This document shows positions 11,997 to 51,030 of a stretch of DNA of 64,000 nucleotides, piece after piece. Source of the DNA: Mobula birostris (lineage: Eukaryota); contig NC_092373.1 of the NCBI RefSeq assembly GCF_030028105.1, forward strand, positions 176,739,556 to 176,803,555, written 5' to 3'. A program made the translations under genes and the position numbers. The first letter of the stretch is position 1. The number at the start of each line of letters is the position of its first letter. The notes under the pieces are model-generated. The model searched no databases. It saw only the letters and a list, made by a program, of their open reading frames with translations, and was not told where the DNA came from.

Positions 11997-13335
11997 GAAA
12001 AGCTATTGGAAGGTATTCTAAGGGATCGGATATATAAGTATTTGGATAGACATGGACTGATTAAGAATAATCAACATGGCTTTGTACATGGTAGGCAATG
12101 TCTAACCAATCTTATAGAGTTTTTCAAGGAAGTTACCAGAACAGTGGATGACGGCAAGGCAATGGATGTTGTCGACATGGACCTTAATAAGGCATTTGAC
12201 AAGGTCCCGCATGGGAGACTGGTCAAGAAGGTTCAGTCGCTGGGCGTCAGGATGAGGTAGTAAATTGGATTAGACATTGGCTTTGTGGAAGAAGGCAGAG
12301 AGTGGTCTTAGAGTTGCATCTCTGACTGGAGGCCTGTGACTTGTGGTGTGCCACAGGCATCAGTGCTGAGTCCATTGTTGTTTGTCATCTATATCAATGA
12401 TCTGGATGCTAATGTGGTTAACTAGATCAGCAAATTTGCAGTCGACACCAAGATTGGAAATGTAGTGGACAATGAAGAAGGTTATCATGGCTTGCAGAGG
12501 ATCTGCATCAGCTGGAAAATGGGCTGAAAAATGGCAGATGGAATTTAATGCAGACAACTGTGAGGTTCAGCATTTCAGTAGGACCAACCAAGGTAAGTAT
12601 TACACTGTGAGGGGTGTGGTAGAACAAAGGGATCTGGGAATAAAGGTTCATCATTCATTGAAAGTGGTGTCACAGGTAGATAGGGCTGTAAAGAAAGCTT
12701 ATTAGCACATTGGCCTTCCTAAATCAATGTATTGACTTCAGAAGTTAAGATGTTATGTTGAAGTTGTATAAGACATTGGTGAGGCCTAATTTGGAGTATT
12801 GTATGCAGTTTTGGTCATATTCCTACAGGAAAGACGTAAACGAGGTTGAAAGAGTGCAGAGAAAATTTACAAGATGTTGCTGGGTCTGGAGGACCTGAGT
12901 TATAAGGAAGGAAAGATTGAATATGTTTGGACTGTATTCTTTAGAACATAGAAGATTGAGAGGAGGTTTGATAGAGGTATACAAGATTATGAGGGGTATA
13001 GATGGGGTAAATACAAGCAGGCTTTTTCCCCACTAAGGTTGGGTGGGACTACAACTAGAGGTCATGGGCTAAGAGTGAAAGGTGAAATGTTTAAGGGGAA
13101 CATGAGGGGAAACGTCTTCACTCAGAGGGTCATGAGAGTGTGGAATGAGCTGCCAGCGCAAGAGGTGATGCGCGTTTGACTTCAACATTTAAGAAAAGTT
13201 GGGATAGGTACATGGGTAGTGGGGATATGGGGGGCTATGGTCCCAGTGCAAGTCAATGGGAGTAGGCAGATTAAATGGTTTCAGAATGGACTAGATGGGC
13301 TGAAGGGCCTGTTTCTGTGCTCTCTGACTCTATGA
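11997..13335 (+). mobile_element. CR1 LINE RT region through the 3' end
   Basis: QHGFVHGRQCLTNLIEFF, DLNKAFDKVPH, WAEKWQMEFN; 3' end 'gggctgaagggcctgtttctgtgct...ctctatg'. Confidence 0.9.
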
Positions 13336-13430
13336 GAAGATAAGGTGTTTTTCCTCAGACTCAGAGAGTGTGGGAGTGGGATAGAGAACTAAGGTGGGAG
13401 GCAAAAGGAAGCTCAGGTGCTCTACAAAAC

Positions 13431-13620
13431 TGTGGTGATATGATGTGTCAGAATGTAATTGGAGAGAGTTCTGAGCATGCGCGGAAATGATAGAATGATT
13501 GAGAACATGGTACTGTAAGAAACGTGGTTTGGTTGTAGCTGTAAATAAAAGTTCTATGTCTTCCAGAATGTGTTTCTTTATTAGTAACCCACAGTACATA
13601 TAAATATAAAGAACACAAGG
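13431..13620 (+). repeat. 5' LTR
   Basis: Begins TGTGGTGATA, contains AATAAA, and aligns to 15761-15948. Confidence 0.9.
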
Positions 13621-13755
13621 TGGTGTTAGGAGTCGGTCTGGAACACAATATGGTGTCAGAAGTTGGTCTGGAGGAATAATACGTTACCTAACACGGGAGA
13701 ATCGAAGATAATCGAAAAGAGTTCGAACTGTTTTGGTGTGCTAACAGTTTTGCAA

Positions 13756-15115
13756 ATGGAAAGGCTGCAACCTCCACCGACACTTCAATTGTCTGGGAAC
13801 ATAGCAGAGAACTGGAGAAATTTTAAGCACCATTTTGAAATTTATTTATCAGCGATCGGAGCAGAATAGAAAACCGGAAAAAACGAAAGCTGTGCTTCTA
13901 CTCCACGTAATAGATGACGACGCAATTGAGGTATATAACCATTTTACTTCTGAAATTGGAGATAATTTAAAGTCAATAATGGACAAATTTGAAGCATTTT
14001 GTATACCAAAGCATAATGTGACGTATGAGCAATACAAATTTTTTACATGTATGCACAGAGCTGGTGAAACTATTGATCAATATGTTACTGAGTTGAGACA
14101 CCAGAGTAAAACATGCGAGTTTGGAGAACTGACAGACTCTCTCATTAAAGACAGAATTGTTTATGGCATTCTGGATAATGGTCTGAGAGAAAGACTGTTA
14201 AGAGAACAAGATTTAGACTTAGAAAAAGCCTTGATGCTCTGCAAAGCTTCAGAAAACGTGATGTTGCAGGCTAAAGAACTTTTTATTGACAGCTGCGACA
14301 TAAACGCTGTGAAAAAGAGCGAATATATTAGAAAAAATAATAAAATGACAACAAAACCGACAGAGAGCAAGACGTCATCTGAAAGAAAAAAGCTATGTGA
14401 TCGCTGTGGGTGGCAGCATTGGCCAAAATAGTGTCCAGTGTATGGAAAAATGTGCAACAACTACGGTAAGAGCAATCATTTTTCACGCTGTTGCAGAAGT
14501 AAAAAGAAAATAAAACAAGTAAATGCAGTGCTTGAAAATGAACTTAAGGAGTTCTATATAGATGTGCTTTGTGAAAACAAACGAAGTAAGAATGACTGGA
14601 CTATTCCATTGCAAGTGAACCAAAACAATATTCTGTTTAAACTTGATACTGGAGCACAAGTAAATGTTCTTGCAGAATCTGAGTTTAATGCATTGAAGTC
14701 AAGACCAAAGTTACATAAGACAAATATAAAAGTGACTGGGTATTCAGATGCAGATATTCCAGTTAAAGGAACATGTGTGGCAAAAGTATCACACAAAAAT
14801 ATTGTGCACATGCTTTCATTTGTGGTGGTGCCAAAGAATGTACAGTCAATACTGGGTTTATCTGCCTGTGAGAGACTGAATTTGGTGAAAATAGTCTTAG
14901 TCCTGGACAGTGACACAGAGTTAGAATGCCGTGACTTGATGAAAGAGTATGAGGACTTATTCAAAGGGCTTGGTTGTCTTCCAGGAGAGCACATGATTAA
15001 AATTGACAACACAGTGCAACCCATAGTACATCCATGTAGAAAAATGCCTTTTGCATTACGTCATCAACTGAAAACAGAGCTTGACAGAATGGAATGGCTA
15101 GAAGTCATAAAGAAA
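13756..15115 (+). pseudogene. Gypsy gag-protease-start of RT (frameshift at about 13868, stop at 14429-14431)
   Basis: Gag (NIAENW..F, DSLIKDRIVYGI), two degenerate zinc knuckles (CDRCG.QH...CP, CNN.GKSNHFSRCC), protease FKLDTGAQVN, and RT N-terminus (P.ALR.QLK.ELDRM...EVIKK). Confidence 0.9.
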
Positions 15116-15471
15116 GGCCGCAGACCCATCCCTTTGTTACCAGCATCTGACAAAGCATTGCCACCAAAACCAGGAGTCGCAATTTTGCCCTCTGGACATG
15201 AATCGATGGGCCATGCATTCCATCACAATCTCACCTCTGCAGGAGGACAGAGGCCAAACTTGCCGGTACAGTACAATACTGATCTGAAGCTAACGAGTGA
15301 CAAGAATCAGGTTCCAATTGGAGAAGTGAAAGCACAAGTGAAGGAATTGAGAAGTTTTATTGAAATGATGAAGTCTCAGCATAAAAAAGAGATTACACAG
15401 TTAATGAATTAGATGAAGAAAAGAAGATTCATATTTCATTACAAATGGAAGTGGAAGGAATTAAGAAAGCT
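15110..15471 (+). pseudogene. SH3KBP1: Captured, apparently processed fragment of SH3KBP1/CIN85 (proline-rich tail plus C-terminal coiled coil)
   Basis: Translates to SDKALPPKPG...EVKAQVKELRSFIEMMKSQHKKEITQLMN/LDEEKKIHISLQMEVEGIKKA. Recalled human CIN85 reads SDNKASLPPKPG...[51 protein letters not shown]. Confidence 0.85.
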
Positions 15472-15702
15472 ACAGTACTTGAAGAAGTACAACCCAGATC
15501 ATACATGGTCCAAACAGAAGAAGGAGCAGTGTTAAGAAGAAATCGCAAAGACCTCAAGAAAGAGCTAACTTCAGAGTTTCAGTTAACTGATGCAGACCAG
15601 ACAAAACATGGAAATAACAACGAAACTCAAGAACTGTGCAAACTACTTAGGAGGTCTACTCGTGTTCGTAAACCCCCAGGGAGACTGATAGAGACATGTT
15701 AA
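15472..15702 (+). pseudogene. Gypsy integrase C-terminal tail
   Basis: TV...QPRSY.VQTE.G..LRRNR..L...RRSTRVRKPP.RL followed by a stop just upstream of the PPT. Confidence 0.85.
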
Positions 15703-15760
15703 ATTATGCATTTGTTCTGGTTAACGTTGCTAATTGTTTTCCTTTTTAAGGAAAGGAAGA

Positions 15761-15948
15761 TGTGGTGATATCACGTGTAAGAATGTGATTGGAGAGAGTT
15801 CTGAGCATGTGCAGAAATGGTAGAAAGATCTGGAAACATAGCGCTGTAAGACACGTGTGGTTGTTGCTGTTAAATAAAAGTTCAATTCTTCCAGAATATG
15901 GTTCTTTATTAGAAACCCACGGTACGTATTAATATAAAGAACACAACA
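15761..15948 (+). repeat. 3' LTR
   Basis: Follows the PPT; TGT...ACA termini; followed by TSD AAAAC. Confidence 0.92.
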
Positions 15949-15999
15949 AAAACAATTGCCCAGTCGGTGTTTGGTTTCTCAGTGTAGGGGCAGCCTCAG

Positions 16000-16620
16000 T
16001 AGAATCAGGTTTATTATCACTTATATATGCTGTGAAATTTGATACTTTGTGCAATATATGTTAAAAAATACAATCAGTTACAATAAGAAATATAAGAAGT
16101 GTAAGTACTGCAAAAAGGGAACAAAATCATGAGGTAATGCTCATAGGATCATTGTCCAATCAGAAATTAGGTGTGGCAGAAACTGTTCCTAAAAGTTTAA
16201 GTGTGTACCTCATTCCTGATCGTAGTAATGAGATGAGGGCTTGTCCTGGGTGGTGGGGGTCTTTCCGAGACACCACCTTTGAAGATGCTAGTGCCCATGA
16301 AGGAACTGGCTGAGTTGACAACCCTCTGCTGCTTCATCCAATCCTGTGCACTGGTGCCTCCATACCAGATGGTGATGCAACCAGATAGAATGATCTGTAG
16401 AAATTTGCTGGAGTCTTTGGTGACGTATTCTCAAACTGCTAATAAAATAAAGCCGCTGGTATGCTTTCTTCATAATTCCATCGATATGTTGGGCCCAGGA
16501 TAGACCTTCAGAGAAGCTGACACCCAGGAACTTGAAACTGCTCACCCTTTCCACTGCTGATCCCTCGATGCACACTGGAGTGTGTTCTCCTGACTCCCTC
16601 TTCCTGAAGTCATTCCTGAA
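16000..16620 (-). mobile_element. Degenerate Rex1/Babar LINE 3' part
   Basis: ORF 16288-16575: VERVSSFKFLGV...KKAYQRLYF. Confidence 0.75.
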
Positions 16621-17177: not shown

Positions 17178-19220
17178 AAGATTCAAGATTCAAAAGATTC
17201 AAAAAACTTTGTTGTTATTCTAACCATACATCAGCTCTGCAGGGCAGAATGAGACAGCGTTTCTCAGGGGCAGTGCAATCATAACATAACAAAAGCAACA
17301 CTAAATAATAAACATAACAATAAATAGTAAAACACAACAGCCACATGTCAGTTAAAATCAGTTATAAGTGTCCAGTGCAAGTTAAAAGTGTCCAAAGCAG
17401 AGTCAGGTGGAGCAGCTATTTAGCAGTCTGACTGCCTGTGGGAGGAAGCTGTTTAGTAGCCTTGTGGTTTTAGTTTTGATGCTCCTGTAACGTTTGCCTG
17501 ATGCAGAAGAACAAACAGTTCATGGAGAGGGTGTGAGGAGTCTTTAACGATGTACCGTGTCTTCTGGAGGCATCGACTCTGAAAGAGGTCTTGGACAGAA
17601 GGTAGGGAGACCCCAATAACCTTCTCTGCTCCCCTAACCACCCTCTGCTAGGCTTTTTTGTCGACAGCATTGCAGCTGGAGTACCAGGTTGTGATGCAAA
17701 AGGTCAGCACACTCTCAACCACGCCTCTGTAGAATGTAATTAAGATGTTAGTGGGGAGTGATGCTTGTTTAAGCTTCCTCAGAAAGTGCAATCTCTGCTG
17801 GGCCCGTTTCACAATCCCAGTGGTGTTCCTGGACCAGGTGAGATTGTCCGAGATCTGCACCCCAAGGAACTTGATGTTTTCCACTCTCTCCACTGTGGAG
17901 CCGCTGATGCTGAGGGGTGCGTGCTCAGGCTGAGACCATCTGAAATTGACAATCATCTCCTTGGTTTTGGTGACATTAAGCATCAAGTTGTTATCCCTTC
18001 ACCAGCTCTCTAGGTGCTTGACCTCCTCCCTGTACATAGTTTCATCATCTTTGCTGATGAGCCCCACCACTTTGGTATCATCTGCAAATTTAATGATCAG
18101 GTTCTCCTTGAATCTGGCTGCACAGTCATGTGTTAGCAGTGTAAACAGCAATGGGCTAAGCACACAGCCTTGTGGGGATCCAGTGCTCAGTGTGATGGTC
18201 AGAGCTGTTCCTGCCAACACAGACTGACTGTGGTCTCTCTATCAAGAAATCCAGAATCCAGCGACACATGGCAGTGCTAAGGCCAAGCAGCGACAGTTTC
18301 TCCACTAGTCTCTGTGGGATGATGGTATTGAGTGCTGAACTGAAATCAATGTACAGGATTCTGGCATAAGTGTCTTTATTGTCCAAGTGACAGAGAACTG
18401 TGTGCAGTGTGGTGGATATTGCATCATCCGTAGAGTGATCTGGACGATAAGCAAACTGTAGAAGATCAAGCGATGAGGGGAGGCTGGCTGTGATATGAGG
18501 CTTGACAAGTCGTTCAAAACATTTCATCACTATGGGGGTCAGGGCAACGGGACGGTAATCATTCAGACAGGCTCCAACTGATTTCTTTGCTACAGGGATG
18601 ATTGTGGAGGTTTTGAAGCATCTGGGGACAATAGCTTGACTAAGGGAGATGTTGAAAATGTCTGTCAGGGCATCTGCTAATACCTCAGCACATTCCTTGA
18701 GCACACGACCAGAGATGTTGTCAGGACCTCCCGCTTTCCGTGGGTTGACCCTGGCAAGGGTCCTCCGTGTTTGCTCTGGATCAATGATTGGAGCCGGCTG
18801 GTCAGATGGTAAAAAGGGACTGGCTCTCCCCCTTGCTGTAGTGTTTGATGCTTCGAAGCGGGTAAAGAAATTGTTAAGCCTGTCTGGAAGAGGGGTGTCG
18901 CTGTCATCAGTTTTCTGCCTGATCTTGTAGTCTGTCAGAGCTTTAATTCCCTGCCACATCCGTCTGGTGTCACCTGTGTCACAGAAGTGTCCATGTATTT
19001 TGCCCGGGTAGGCACTTTTCGCTTTCCTGATCCCTAGTGAAAGCGCAGACCTGGCTGAGTGAAGCGCACTCCTGTCCCCCGATCTGTAAGCTGTGTCACG
19101 GGCCTTCAGTAGTGAAAGCACCTCTGTTGTCATCCATGGCTTTTTATAACCACGTGTGGTGAAGGTTTTCATCACAGTGACATCCTCCGAGCATTTGGCT
19201 ATCAAGAATGTAAATACCAC
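17178..19220 (-). mobile_element. Rex1/Babar LINE with a largely intact RT region (frameshifted)
   Basis: ORFs 18156-19220, 17999-18220 and 17648-17986: [37 protein letters not shown]; (ttgaatc)n tail at about 17178-17202. Confidence 0.92.
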
Positions 19221-19254
19221 CCCATCTCATGTGTTGATATTTTCAGTTGGAATG

Positions 19255-46402: not shown

Positions 46403-47865
46403 AATCATAGTCATACTTTATTGATCCTGGGGGAAATTGGTTTTCGTTACAGTTGCACCATAAAAAAAAGTAATAAAACCATAAAGAATGAATTAGTAAT
46501 ATGTAAATTATGCAAGGAAATAAGTCCAGGACCGGCCTATTGGCTCAGGGTGTCTGACCCTCCAAGGGAGGAGTTGTAAAGTTTGATGGCCACAGGCAGG
46601 AATGACTTCCTATGACGCTCTGTGTTGCATCTCGGTGGAATGAGTCTCCGGCTGAATATACTCCTGTGCCCAACCAGTACATTATGTAGTGGATGGGAGA
46701 CATTGTCCAAGATGGCATGCAACTTAGACAGCATCCTCTTTTCAGATACTACCGTGAGAGAGTCCAGTTCTATCCCCACAGCATCACTGGCCTTACGAAT
46801 GAGTTTGTTGATTCTGTTGGTGTCTGCTACCCTCAGCCTGCTGTGCCAGCACACAACAGCAAACATGATCCACAGACTCGTAGAACATCCTCAGCATCGT
46901 CCGACAGATGTTAAAGGACCTCAGTCTCCTCAGGAAATAGAGATGGCTCTGACCCTTCTTGTAGACGGCCTCAGTGTTCTTAGACCAGTCCAGTTTATTG
47001 TCAATTCGTATCCCCAGGTACTTGTAATCCTCCACCATGTCCACACTGACCCCCTGGATGGAAACAGGGGTCACCGGTACCTTAGCTCTCCTCAGGTCTA
47101 CCACCAGCTCCTTAGTCTTTTTCACATTAAGCTGCAGATAATTCTGCTCACGCCATGTGACAAAGTTTCCTACTGTAGCCTCATCTCCCCTGCTGATGTA
47201 TCCAACTATGGCAGAGTCATCAGAAAACTTCTGAAGATGACAAGACTCTGTGCAGTAGTTGAAGTCCGAGGTGTAAATGGTGAAGAGAAAGGGAGACAAG
47301 ACAGTCCCCTGTGGAGCCCCAATGCTGCTGATCACTCTGTCGGACACACAGTGTTGCAAGCACACGTACTGTGGTCTCCCAGTCAGGTAATCAAGAATCC
47401 ATGACACCAGGAAAGCATCCACCTGCATTGCTGTCAGCTTCTCCCCCAGCAGAGCAGGGCGGATGGTGTTGAACGCACTGGAGAAGTCAAAAAACATGAC
47501 CCTTATAGTGCTCGCTGGCTTGTCCAGGTGGGCGTAGACACAGTTCAGCAGGTAGACAGTGGCATCCTCAACTCCTAGTCAGGGCTGGTAGACGAACTGG
47601 AGGGGATCTAAGTGTGGCCTGACCACAGGCCGGAGCAGCTCCAGAATGAGTCTCTCCAGGGTCTTCATGATGTGGGAGGTCAATGCCACTGGTCTGTAGT
47701 CATTGAGGCTGCTGGGGTGCGGCATCTTCGGCACAGGGACAAGGCAGGACGTCCTCCACAGCACAGGAACCCTCTGGAGCCTCAGGCTCAGGTTGAAGAC
47801 ATGGCGAAGTATTCCACATAGCTGAGGGGCACAGGCTTTGAGCACCCTGGTACTGACACCATCCT
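46403..47865 (-). mobile_element. Rex1/Babar LINE, 5'-truncated
   Basis: [40 protein letters not shown]; (gactat) tail. Confidence 0.92.
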
Positions 47866-49169: not shown

Positions 49170-51030
49170 ATCATAAGACGAAAGGACCTTATGGGATAGG
49201 AGTAGAATTAGGCCATCTGGCTCATTGACTTTGCTCCATCATTTCATCATGGCTGTTCTATTTCCCCTCTCAACCCCATTCTCCTTTTCTCCCTGTAACC
49301 TTTCACACCCTAACTAATCAAGAACTTATCAACCTCTACCTTGAATACACCAAATGGTCTGGCCTCCACAGCTACTTGTGACAACAAATTCTACAGATTC
49401 TCCACCCTCTGGCTAAAGAAATTCCTCCTCATCTCCATTCTAAATGGATGGCCCTCTGTTTTGAGGCTATGCCCTATGGTCTTACATCCTTCCTAACTAG
49501 GTCTTTCAACTCCACTCTCACCCTGAACACCGGCGTGTCTCAAGGCTGTGTGTCGAGCCCTCTTCTATACTCTCTTTTCACCTATGACTGCATTCCTGTA
49601 CATGGTTCTAGCTCCATAATCAAATTCGCAGATGACACCACAGTGGTTGGCCTGATCAGAGGGGATGACAAAACGGGCTACAGGGACGAGGTCCAGCACC
49701 TGGCCGCGTGGTGTGCCGACAACAACCTGGCCCTTAACACCCAGAAGACCAAGGAGATCATTGTGGACTTCAGGCATGCCAGGAGTCACACTCACGTCCC
49801 CATCTACATCAACGGAACTGTAGTGGAGCATGTATCAAGCTTCAAATTCCTTGGTGTCCACATTTCTGATTATCGGCACCCAATTGCCACCATTGAGAAC
49901 ATCTACCATAAACGTTGCCAGGGCAGGGCGAAAAGCATTATCAAGGATGCATCTCACCCTAACCATGGACTTTTTACTCTCCTCCTATCCGGTAGGCGCT
50001 ACAGGAGCCTCCGCTCCCGCACCAGCAGGCACAGGAAGAGCTTCTTCCCTGAGGCTGTGACACTGCTGAACCCCTCATCACAGCGCTAAGCAGTATTGCA
50101 CCCGTATTGTACTGTCTCAGTACTTTTATATTTGTGTGCTGTAGCACTTTTTTTATTTGTAGTTATTTTGTAAATAACACTACTCTTTGCATTTCTGGTC
50201 AGATGCTAAATGCATTTCACTGGCTTTGTATCTGTACTCGGCACAATGACAATAAAGTTGAATCTAATCTAATATAGGTTTCAATGAGATTTCCCTTCAT
50301 TCTCCTAATTTCAAGTGAGTAAAGGCCCACAGCCGTCAAAACACTCCTCATACAATAACTCTTCCATTTCTGGAATCATTCTGACGAATCTCCTCTGAAC
50401 TCTCTCCAATGACAGCACATTCTTTCTTAGCTAAGGGGCCCAAAACTGCTCACGATACTCCAATTGAGGCCTCACCTGTGCCTTATAAGGCCTCAGCATT
50501 ACATGCAACACACATAAAAGTTGCTGGTGAACGCAGCAGGCCAGGCAGCATCTCTAGGAAGAGGTGCAGTCGATGTTTCAGGCCGAGACCCTTCGTCAGC
50601 ATTACATCCTTGCTTTTACAGTATATTCCAGTCCTCTCAAAATGAATGCTAACATTGCATTTGTCTTCCTCACCACCAACTGAATCTGCAAGATAACCCT
50701 CAGGGAATCCTGCACGAGGACTCACATGTCCCTTTGCCCCTTGGGCTTTTGAATTTTCTGCCTGATTAGAAAATAGTCTATGCTTTTGTTCTTTCTACCA
50801 AAGTGCATGACTGTACACTTCCCAACACGGTATTCCATCTCCCATTTCTTTGCACATTCTCTTAATTTGTCTAAATCCACCTGCAGCCTCTATGCTCCAT
50901 CAACGCTATCTGTCCCTCAACCTATCTTCATATCAATCGCAAACTTGGCCAGAAAGCCATCAATTCTGTCATCCAAATCTTTGACACGTAACATTAAAAG
51001 AAGCAGTCCCAACACCAATCCCTTCGGAAC
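49170..51030 (-). mobile_element. CR1 3' region interrupted by Rex1 (about 49500-50273) and Penelope (50504-50597) inserts
   Basis: CR1 3' end 'ataggagtagaattaggccat' on the reverse strand; the CR1 sequence resumes after each insert. Confidence 0.75.
49500..50273 (+). mobile_element. Rex1/Babar LINE, truncated and internally deleted
   Basis: ORF 49448-50089 (QGCVSSPLLYSLFT, KFADDTTVVGLI); (aatct)n tail. Confidence 0.9.

Follow-up and report, generated by a model that had tools for sequence, protein, structure and literature searches.

When an LTR element captures a piece of a host gene, the fragment usually stays a passenger at low copy number or becomes raw material for host genes. The closest described systems are the LTR-mediated retrocopies (Tan et al. 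2016, PMC5131818), in which, as the available part of that report has it, a partial spliced mRNA lies between the halves of an LTR element, with microsimilarity where the template switches occurred, secondary retroposition, and multi-gene chimeras. Maize Bs1, in the same source, has 1–5 copies, its switch points are fixed, and of the three pieces that it carries one is not in frame. According to the accessible sections of PMC4299795, crocodilian ERVs with KIT-ligand or nectin3 also represent host mRNA multiplied by a vertebrate LTR element with signs of frame selection; they are retroviruses that carry near-whole host ORFs, with nine intact KIT-ligand copies. Plant TR-GAG elements (PMC8704663, in part) combine LTRs and a Gag frame, lack RT and integrase, and are moved by an autonomous relative. 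Finally, in the excerpts of PMC8952333 and PMC8537868, engineered HIV Gag-zipper and protease-zipper fusions place a foreign oligomerizing coil behind Gag or protease.

The element studied here lies in a 64-kb window, meaning the whole stretch of Mobula birostris DNA that was analyzed. It shares with the LTR-mediated retrocopies an intronless partial host mRNA within a discontinuous LTR element and microsimilarity at both switch points. The capture mechanism is already known, while the scale, the repeated capture of coils, and the frame rule reported below were not found in the literature searched. Unlike Bs1, the ray family comprises at least 197 copies, every one of its recurrent junctions (at least 17) keeps the reading frame of its own Gag, and both donors give coils. 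In contrast to the crocodilian ERVs, the ray family has small domains built into the Gag-Pol frame of a Gypsy element. The family also departs from the Gag-only ORF of TR-GAG elements, as most copies retain the protease and all add host coils. The HIV fusions are laboratory constructs, and the protease-zipper fusion lowered particle yield (PMC8537868, in part), so that a benefit of the coil in the ray family is not a given. The preliminary description likened the capture to retroviral oncogene transduction; the mechanism agrees, but the parents are Gypsy elements without the env gene expected of acutely transforming retroviruses, and there was no sign of infection. The literature covered, as titles and the beginnings of abstracts with few subscription papers, contained no LTR family capturing SH3KBP1 or RABEP1 in this manner, and the main text of the mobulid genome preprint mentions neither gene. 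The family may already be present in repeat libraries without being read as a capture.

The window element (13431–15948) is a non-autonomous, 2.5-kb Gypsy element. The two LTRs, PBS, PPT, and 5-bp TSD that had been proposed for it were all located, with the TSD AAAAC on both sides. Its parts are as follows.

13426..13430, plus strand: 5′ TSD AAAAC, from the sequence; matches the 3′ copy
13431..13620, plus strand: 5′ LTR, by repeat comparison; terminal CA changed in the window copy
13621..13663, plus strand: PBS region, with the PBS in two copies through a 30-bp tandem duplication
13757..14590, plus strand: gag part of a single gag-pol frame, by alignment to parents and to relative P0121; frameshift and stops in the window copy
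14591..14900, plus strand: aspartic protease (Pfam PF13975, E 1e-6)
14901..15115, plus strand: start of reverse transcriptase, interrupted at 15115, by parent alignment
15100..15115, plus strand: 5′ switch point, class A; 14 of 16 nt common to parent and host
15100..15470, plus strand: spliced SH3KBP1 fragment, by host-exon alignment; exon joins at 15142/3, 15384/5, and 15444/5
15320..15470, plus strand: CIN85 coiled coil, by structure match; first half retained in all recurrent classes
15464..15470, plus strand: 3′ switch point; 7-nt microhomology AGAAAGC
15471..15702, plus strand: integrase C-terminal tail and stop, by parent alignment
15748..15760, plus strand: polypurine tract, from the sequence
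15761..15948, plus strand: 3′ LTR, by repeat comparison
15949..15953, plus strand: 3′ TSD AAAAC

The PBS-like site at 13621–13633, which we take to match tRNA-Leu, is repeated at 13651–13663 by the 30-bp tandem repeat, present in 3 of 77 copies. The LTRs of the window element are 88% identical over aligned columns. Two changes in the element, a 9-nt deletion and the frameshift around 15405, occur in no other copy.

Ten full-length parents of ~4.75 kb align only to element bases 1–1685 and 2034–2518, indicating that ~2.2 kb of RT-RNaseH-integrase sequence was replaced. The supposed loss of this core was thus borne out, the parents lacking a match only across the insert. The parents have the order protease-RT-RNaseH-integrase; all ten are collinear with P0121, a relative of 1285 aa, as far as the 3′ LTR and contain no env. 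Since the full-length parents are without the insert, it is not a normal domain of the family. Among 20 loci sampled by tail similarity, ten were full-length parents, three were truncated or deleted parents, five carried SH3KBP1, and two carried RABEP1.

The insert, standing where RT-RNaseH-integrase would be, consists of ~370 nt of SH3KBP1/CIN85 mRNA. A structure search matched it to the SH3KBP1 coiled-coil chains 5abs and 2n64 (E 2.6e-5), and the named proteins among the 120 matches listed in a protein search were all SH3KBP1, save one chimeric stingray protein. Four exons of SH3KBP1 in the same genome (C7:81.005–81.013 Mb) account for the window insert at 93% identity, and their joins fall precisely where three GT-AG introns, of 4.2, 1.1, and 2.0 kb, have been removed. 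These exons, when translated, resemble Mobula SH3KBP1, to which a sister copy of the element shows 93% identity. The earlier assignment to SH3KBP1 rather than CD2AP, to a spliced mRNA crossing exon–exon junctions, and to a double template switch all held, and the TSD around the whole chimera confirms integration as one unit. CD2AP as the donor was excluded by the named matches and the own-gene exons; a weaker SH3KBP1-like exon (58%) at C3:220417130–220417243 is probably this paralogue. The insert ends 14 nt short of the host stop codon, and no 3′ UTR, poly(A), or TSD of its own was found on it. The absence of introns and poly(A) excludes a DNA-level or L1-type origin. At the 5′ switch, 14 of 16 nt are the same in parent and host; at the 3′ switch, the two have 7 nt in common. 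Pol had been described as breaking off at EVIKK (15115) and restarting at 15472; it is interrupted there, but EVIKK and the final KKA both sit within microhomologies common to host and parent. Reverse transcription left the parent RNA for a spliced SH3KBP1 mRNA and later returned to parent RNA, in both cases at short microhomologies, and of the capture, taken alone, we are practically certain. An assembly chimera was ruled out, as both junctions recur: of 147 loci, 87 have the 3′ junction and 67 the 5′ junction.

A search of the genome for further chimeras with different TSDs, suggested at the outset, identified at least 197 distinct chimeric loci: 161 with SH3KBP1 only, 33 with both genes, and three with RABEP1 only (SH3KBP1 in 194 of 197). 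The DNA search scored the best 40 of 449 candidates and the protein search the best 150 of 513, one of them the host exon. Host exon sequence was present in 147 of the 162 loci examined, these first 147 having been found mostly with a coil-containing query. A 20-mer that spans the 3′ junction was counted 53 times in the genome (control, 0) and is exact in 33 of 87 retrieved copies, which corresponds to ~140 copies of the 3′ junction alone; the equivalent parent 20-mer occurs 151 times. A perfect 5-bp TSD was observed in 38 of 77 copies having both ends, nearly all different in sequence, and 11 more match at four of five positions. The recurrent junctions and differing TSDs show secondary retroposition of the chimera. 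LTR pairs are 90.9% identical on average (66 copies). Outside CpG, divergence between the copies and the host exons is ~3%, and there are just 5 of ~410 sites at which the host departs from most copies, implying that the burst came soon after capture. A near-length protein search for chimeras and a pattern search for the parent junction returned no match. Several equal-score chimeric groups (C7:185.9–186.3 Mb, C17:45.9–87 Mb, and C8:180.68–180.70 Mb) are probably segmental or tandem duplications rather than separate insertions.

The family extends beyond Mobula. The predicted Hemitrygon akajei protein P0003 (XP_072897951-3) contains the same class A and 3′ junctions and retains residues altered in stingray SH3KBP1 genes. 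In run X13 (organism F), a contig bridges 14923–15177, and the class B junction and a class-specific deletion were also present. On both records, rays have the family in common, through vertical descent or transfer.

Class A, to which the window copy belongs, accounts for 67 of the 147 loci. In class B (29 of 147), the parent is joined 162 nt earlier, and 46 more host bases are retained than in class A; for this reason, the 5′ junction of the window copy is probably secondary. The preliminary description was correct about a transduced host mRNA, but the family numbers hundreds, and the window copy arose late within it and does not represent the capture event. The simplest path would lead from B to A, with class B arising first and a later switch back to helper RNA at a long microhomology generating class A. 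Two separate 5′ switches on host mRNA could instead have produced both classes. Class A has the smallest net distance to the parents and groups with nine of ten in a Gag-protease tree that is poorly resolved and mosaic. Further rearrangements trimmed the insert. In 39 of 147 loci (among them L044, L153, and L162), the CIN85 coil has lost its second half through a deletion and a 12-nt inversion, the product of which continues a leucine-rich, helix-like pattern in frame. Recurrent deletions take out the proline-rich part, ending at or before the coil start, and in the protease-less classes the coil still follows Gag in the same frame. Of the 50 second-set copies, 23 have a deletion that takes off the tail end including the stop, implying that the tail is dispensable. 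One chimeric copy (L047) has ~1.8 kb inserted within the CIN85 coil and a perfect element TSD.

Nineteen further loci with the 3′ junction, unranked by protein search, yielded five with a different in-frame insert, identified as Rabaptin by Pfam (E 1e-40) and 83% identical to Narcine RABEP1 (Rabaptin-5). This spliced coiled coil (L063:4615–4947; also L201) joins two host exons, C29:53631355–53631153 and from 53622116 on the host minus strand, over one 9-kb intron, with microhomologies at the capture junctions. We scored the best 150 of 286 candidates in the RABEP1 search, one being the host exon, and examined the top 30. RABEP1 leads directly into the first residue of the CIN85 coil in 31 of 50 new loci; in 22 of 50, a 47-codon CIN85 piece is set within the RABEP1 coil, which then resumes. 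The same Gypsy family separately captured the spliced RABEP1 coiled coil, and recombination joined both coils. No third captured gene was found in 19 parent-junction loci, and pattern searches for RABEP1 exon starts gave no match. The Narcine RABEP1 isoform model P0250 has a non-RABEP1 end (residues 563–703), which we read as LINE-like RT sequence and which is probably an annotation artefact.

Among the first 147 loci, large junctions in at least three copies were in frame in 11 of 11 cases, versus 8 of 27 (30%) single-copy junctions (Fisher p 1.3e-4). Six further recurrent junctions among 50 new loci were likewise all in frame, bringing the total to 17/17. With the chance of an in-frame junction taken as 0.33–0.5 each, p is 6e-7 at a microhomology null of 0.43 and 8e-6 at 0.5. 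The 17 exclude the 23-copy tail deletion, since it runs past the stop; the variable GA-run slippage at the class B junction (five copies, four out of frame) was not counted as a junction. One two-copy junction of the second set was in frame on translation. Of the single-copy junctions there, 16 of 26 were also in frame, several belonging to classes already seen. Small indels were multiples of three in 17 of 29 cases in at least five copies, compared with 89 of 437 private ones. A 1-nt deletion at the coil end occurs in 28 of 95 copies and was probably inherited, because it is concentrated in class A and its derivatives (26 of 63 vs 1 of 22); a 1-nt gain in an A run occurs in 13 copies. As the late frameshift and the tail deletion were amplified, the frame rule spans Gag through the coil and not the tail, and an integrase-tail motif is excluded as the target of selection. 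The 17 in-frame junctions argue that translation through the insert, that is, one open frame from Gag into it, has very probably been selected.

The non-autonomous chimera spread to many sites and divided into classes by further switches; we propose that full-length helpers of the same family did the copying. Only versions with one open frame from Gag through the insert would have been amplified, so that the chimeric RNA would have needed translation through it. The predicted Gag-(protease)-coil product may have spread better through oligomerization by the host coil, which would replace the self-association lost with RT and integrase and aid co-assembly with helper particles. Parts of the cited reports provide precedents: a zipper can take the place of nucleocapsid when HIV Gag assembles (PMC8952333), protease can be made to dimerize by a zipper (PMC8537868), and the CIN85 coil trimerizes (PMC10786037). 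The lack of cis preference of Ty1 and HIV Gag (PMC3945221, in part) counts against a role for the coil, as do the amplified half-coils, the common late frameshift, and the coil-containing query behind most of the first 147 loci. Both captures gave long coils (2/2), and in a natural double fusion one unbroken helix is predicted over both joins (residues 64–173; block pLDDT 87–98 at residues 71–170), although helices are the usual outcome when any coil is folded from a single sequence. Amplification of the chimera is certain and frame selection likely, and a benefit from the coil has about even odds; we are evenly divided on the whole chain including Gag oligomerization. Just short of an even chance is given to the fuller account, in which the family took two unrelated host coils as a Gag oligomerization domain, trimmed the non-coil parts, joined the coils into a longer rod, and thereby rivaled its helpers in copy number.

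The frame may matter while the coil does not, a possibility that we entertain seriously but tentatively. The RNA would then be translated to near the 3′ LTR, for example to escape early-stop transcript decay or because ribosomes carry it to where particles assemble. The host pieces would be tolerated, stop-free spacers picked up via in-frame microhomologies of purine-rich coil RNA. This would account for the 17 in-frame junctions as well as for the tolerated late frameshift and tail loss. It would also fit the finding that amino-acid constraint was not detected, at low power, in either SH3KBP1 (shared changes 5/10 synonymous, 2.4 expected, p 0.057) or RABEP1 (3/11). Insert-less Gag-tail deletions in the same frame (2 of 19 parent-junction loci) are also consistent with spacers, as is the match of both ends of the CIN85 piece in double chimeras to one RABEP1 site. 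However, two independent captures must then both have been long coils, and trimming removed the proline-rich part and spared the coil. Moreover, each insert-less deletion has its own junction, with none recurrent in the 19 loci, whereas the short Gag- or insert-bearing elements among the 20 tail-selected loci all carry a host coil (7/7). Selection may also be absent altogether, with passengers mobilized in trans and in-frame junctions due to codon-periodic microhomology and founder luck. Coil-coding RNA is purine-rich (0.64–0.69 vs 0.56–0.59) and codon-periodic, which raises in-frame microhomology above the null used; longer microhomologies are more often in frame (0.40 at 4 nt, 0.48 at 6 nt, and 0.62 at 7 nt), and a common 1-nt frameshift was amplified. 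We nevertheless consider this very improbable, given p ~1e-5 for 17/17 at 0.5 and the 30% in-frame share of first-set single-copy junctions. That the coils target particles, pairing with host CIN85/CD2AP or Rabaptin-5 to bring Gag to endosomal membranes, seems very improbable. Both donors are, we presume, endocytic adaptors and would come from one pathway (2/2), but the partner-binding proline-rich motifs were repeatedly deleted, and half-coils and fused coils amplify. Gag itself is under purifying selection (net ratio ~0.3), a constraint that may derive from the helpers by recombination. In two RNA runs, chosen by guess, the insert was dominated by a contig continuing as host mRNA, and none of the listed pieces spans the main junctions; one contig in run X20 with a class-specific deletion (depth 14) is too weak to count.

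Here, hundreds of captured copies stand under an apparent frame-keeping rule, so that genomes alone could test two ideas: that a defective LTR element benefits when its own Gag is translated, and that host domains, once captured, can be of use to the element. The family suggests that parasitic elements can borrow host protein parts. If oligomerization by the coil is real, its recruitment would be a natural counterpart of the engineered Gag-zipper chimeras, would show a translation-dependent cis advantage in an LTR element, and would mean that repeated theft of host sequence can give non-autonomous LTR elements a new protein module. For annotators, ray genomes carry many false SH3KBP1 and RABEP1 matches.

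No host gene was seen in the 64-kb window. Very high-copy repeats, which we take to be CR1-like 3′ ends, flank the element at 13000–13335 and 15950–16045. The window ORFs at 1739–2278, 18159–19226, 46796–47578, and 49382–50086 are presumably non-LTR reverse-transcriptase fragments.
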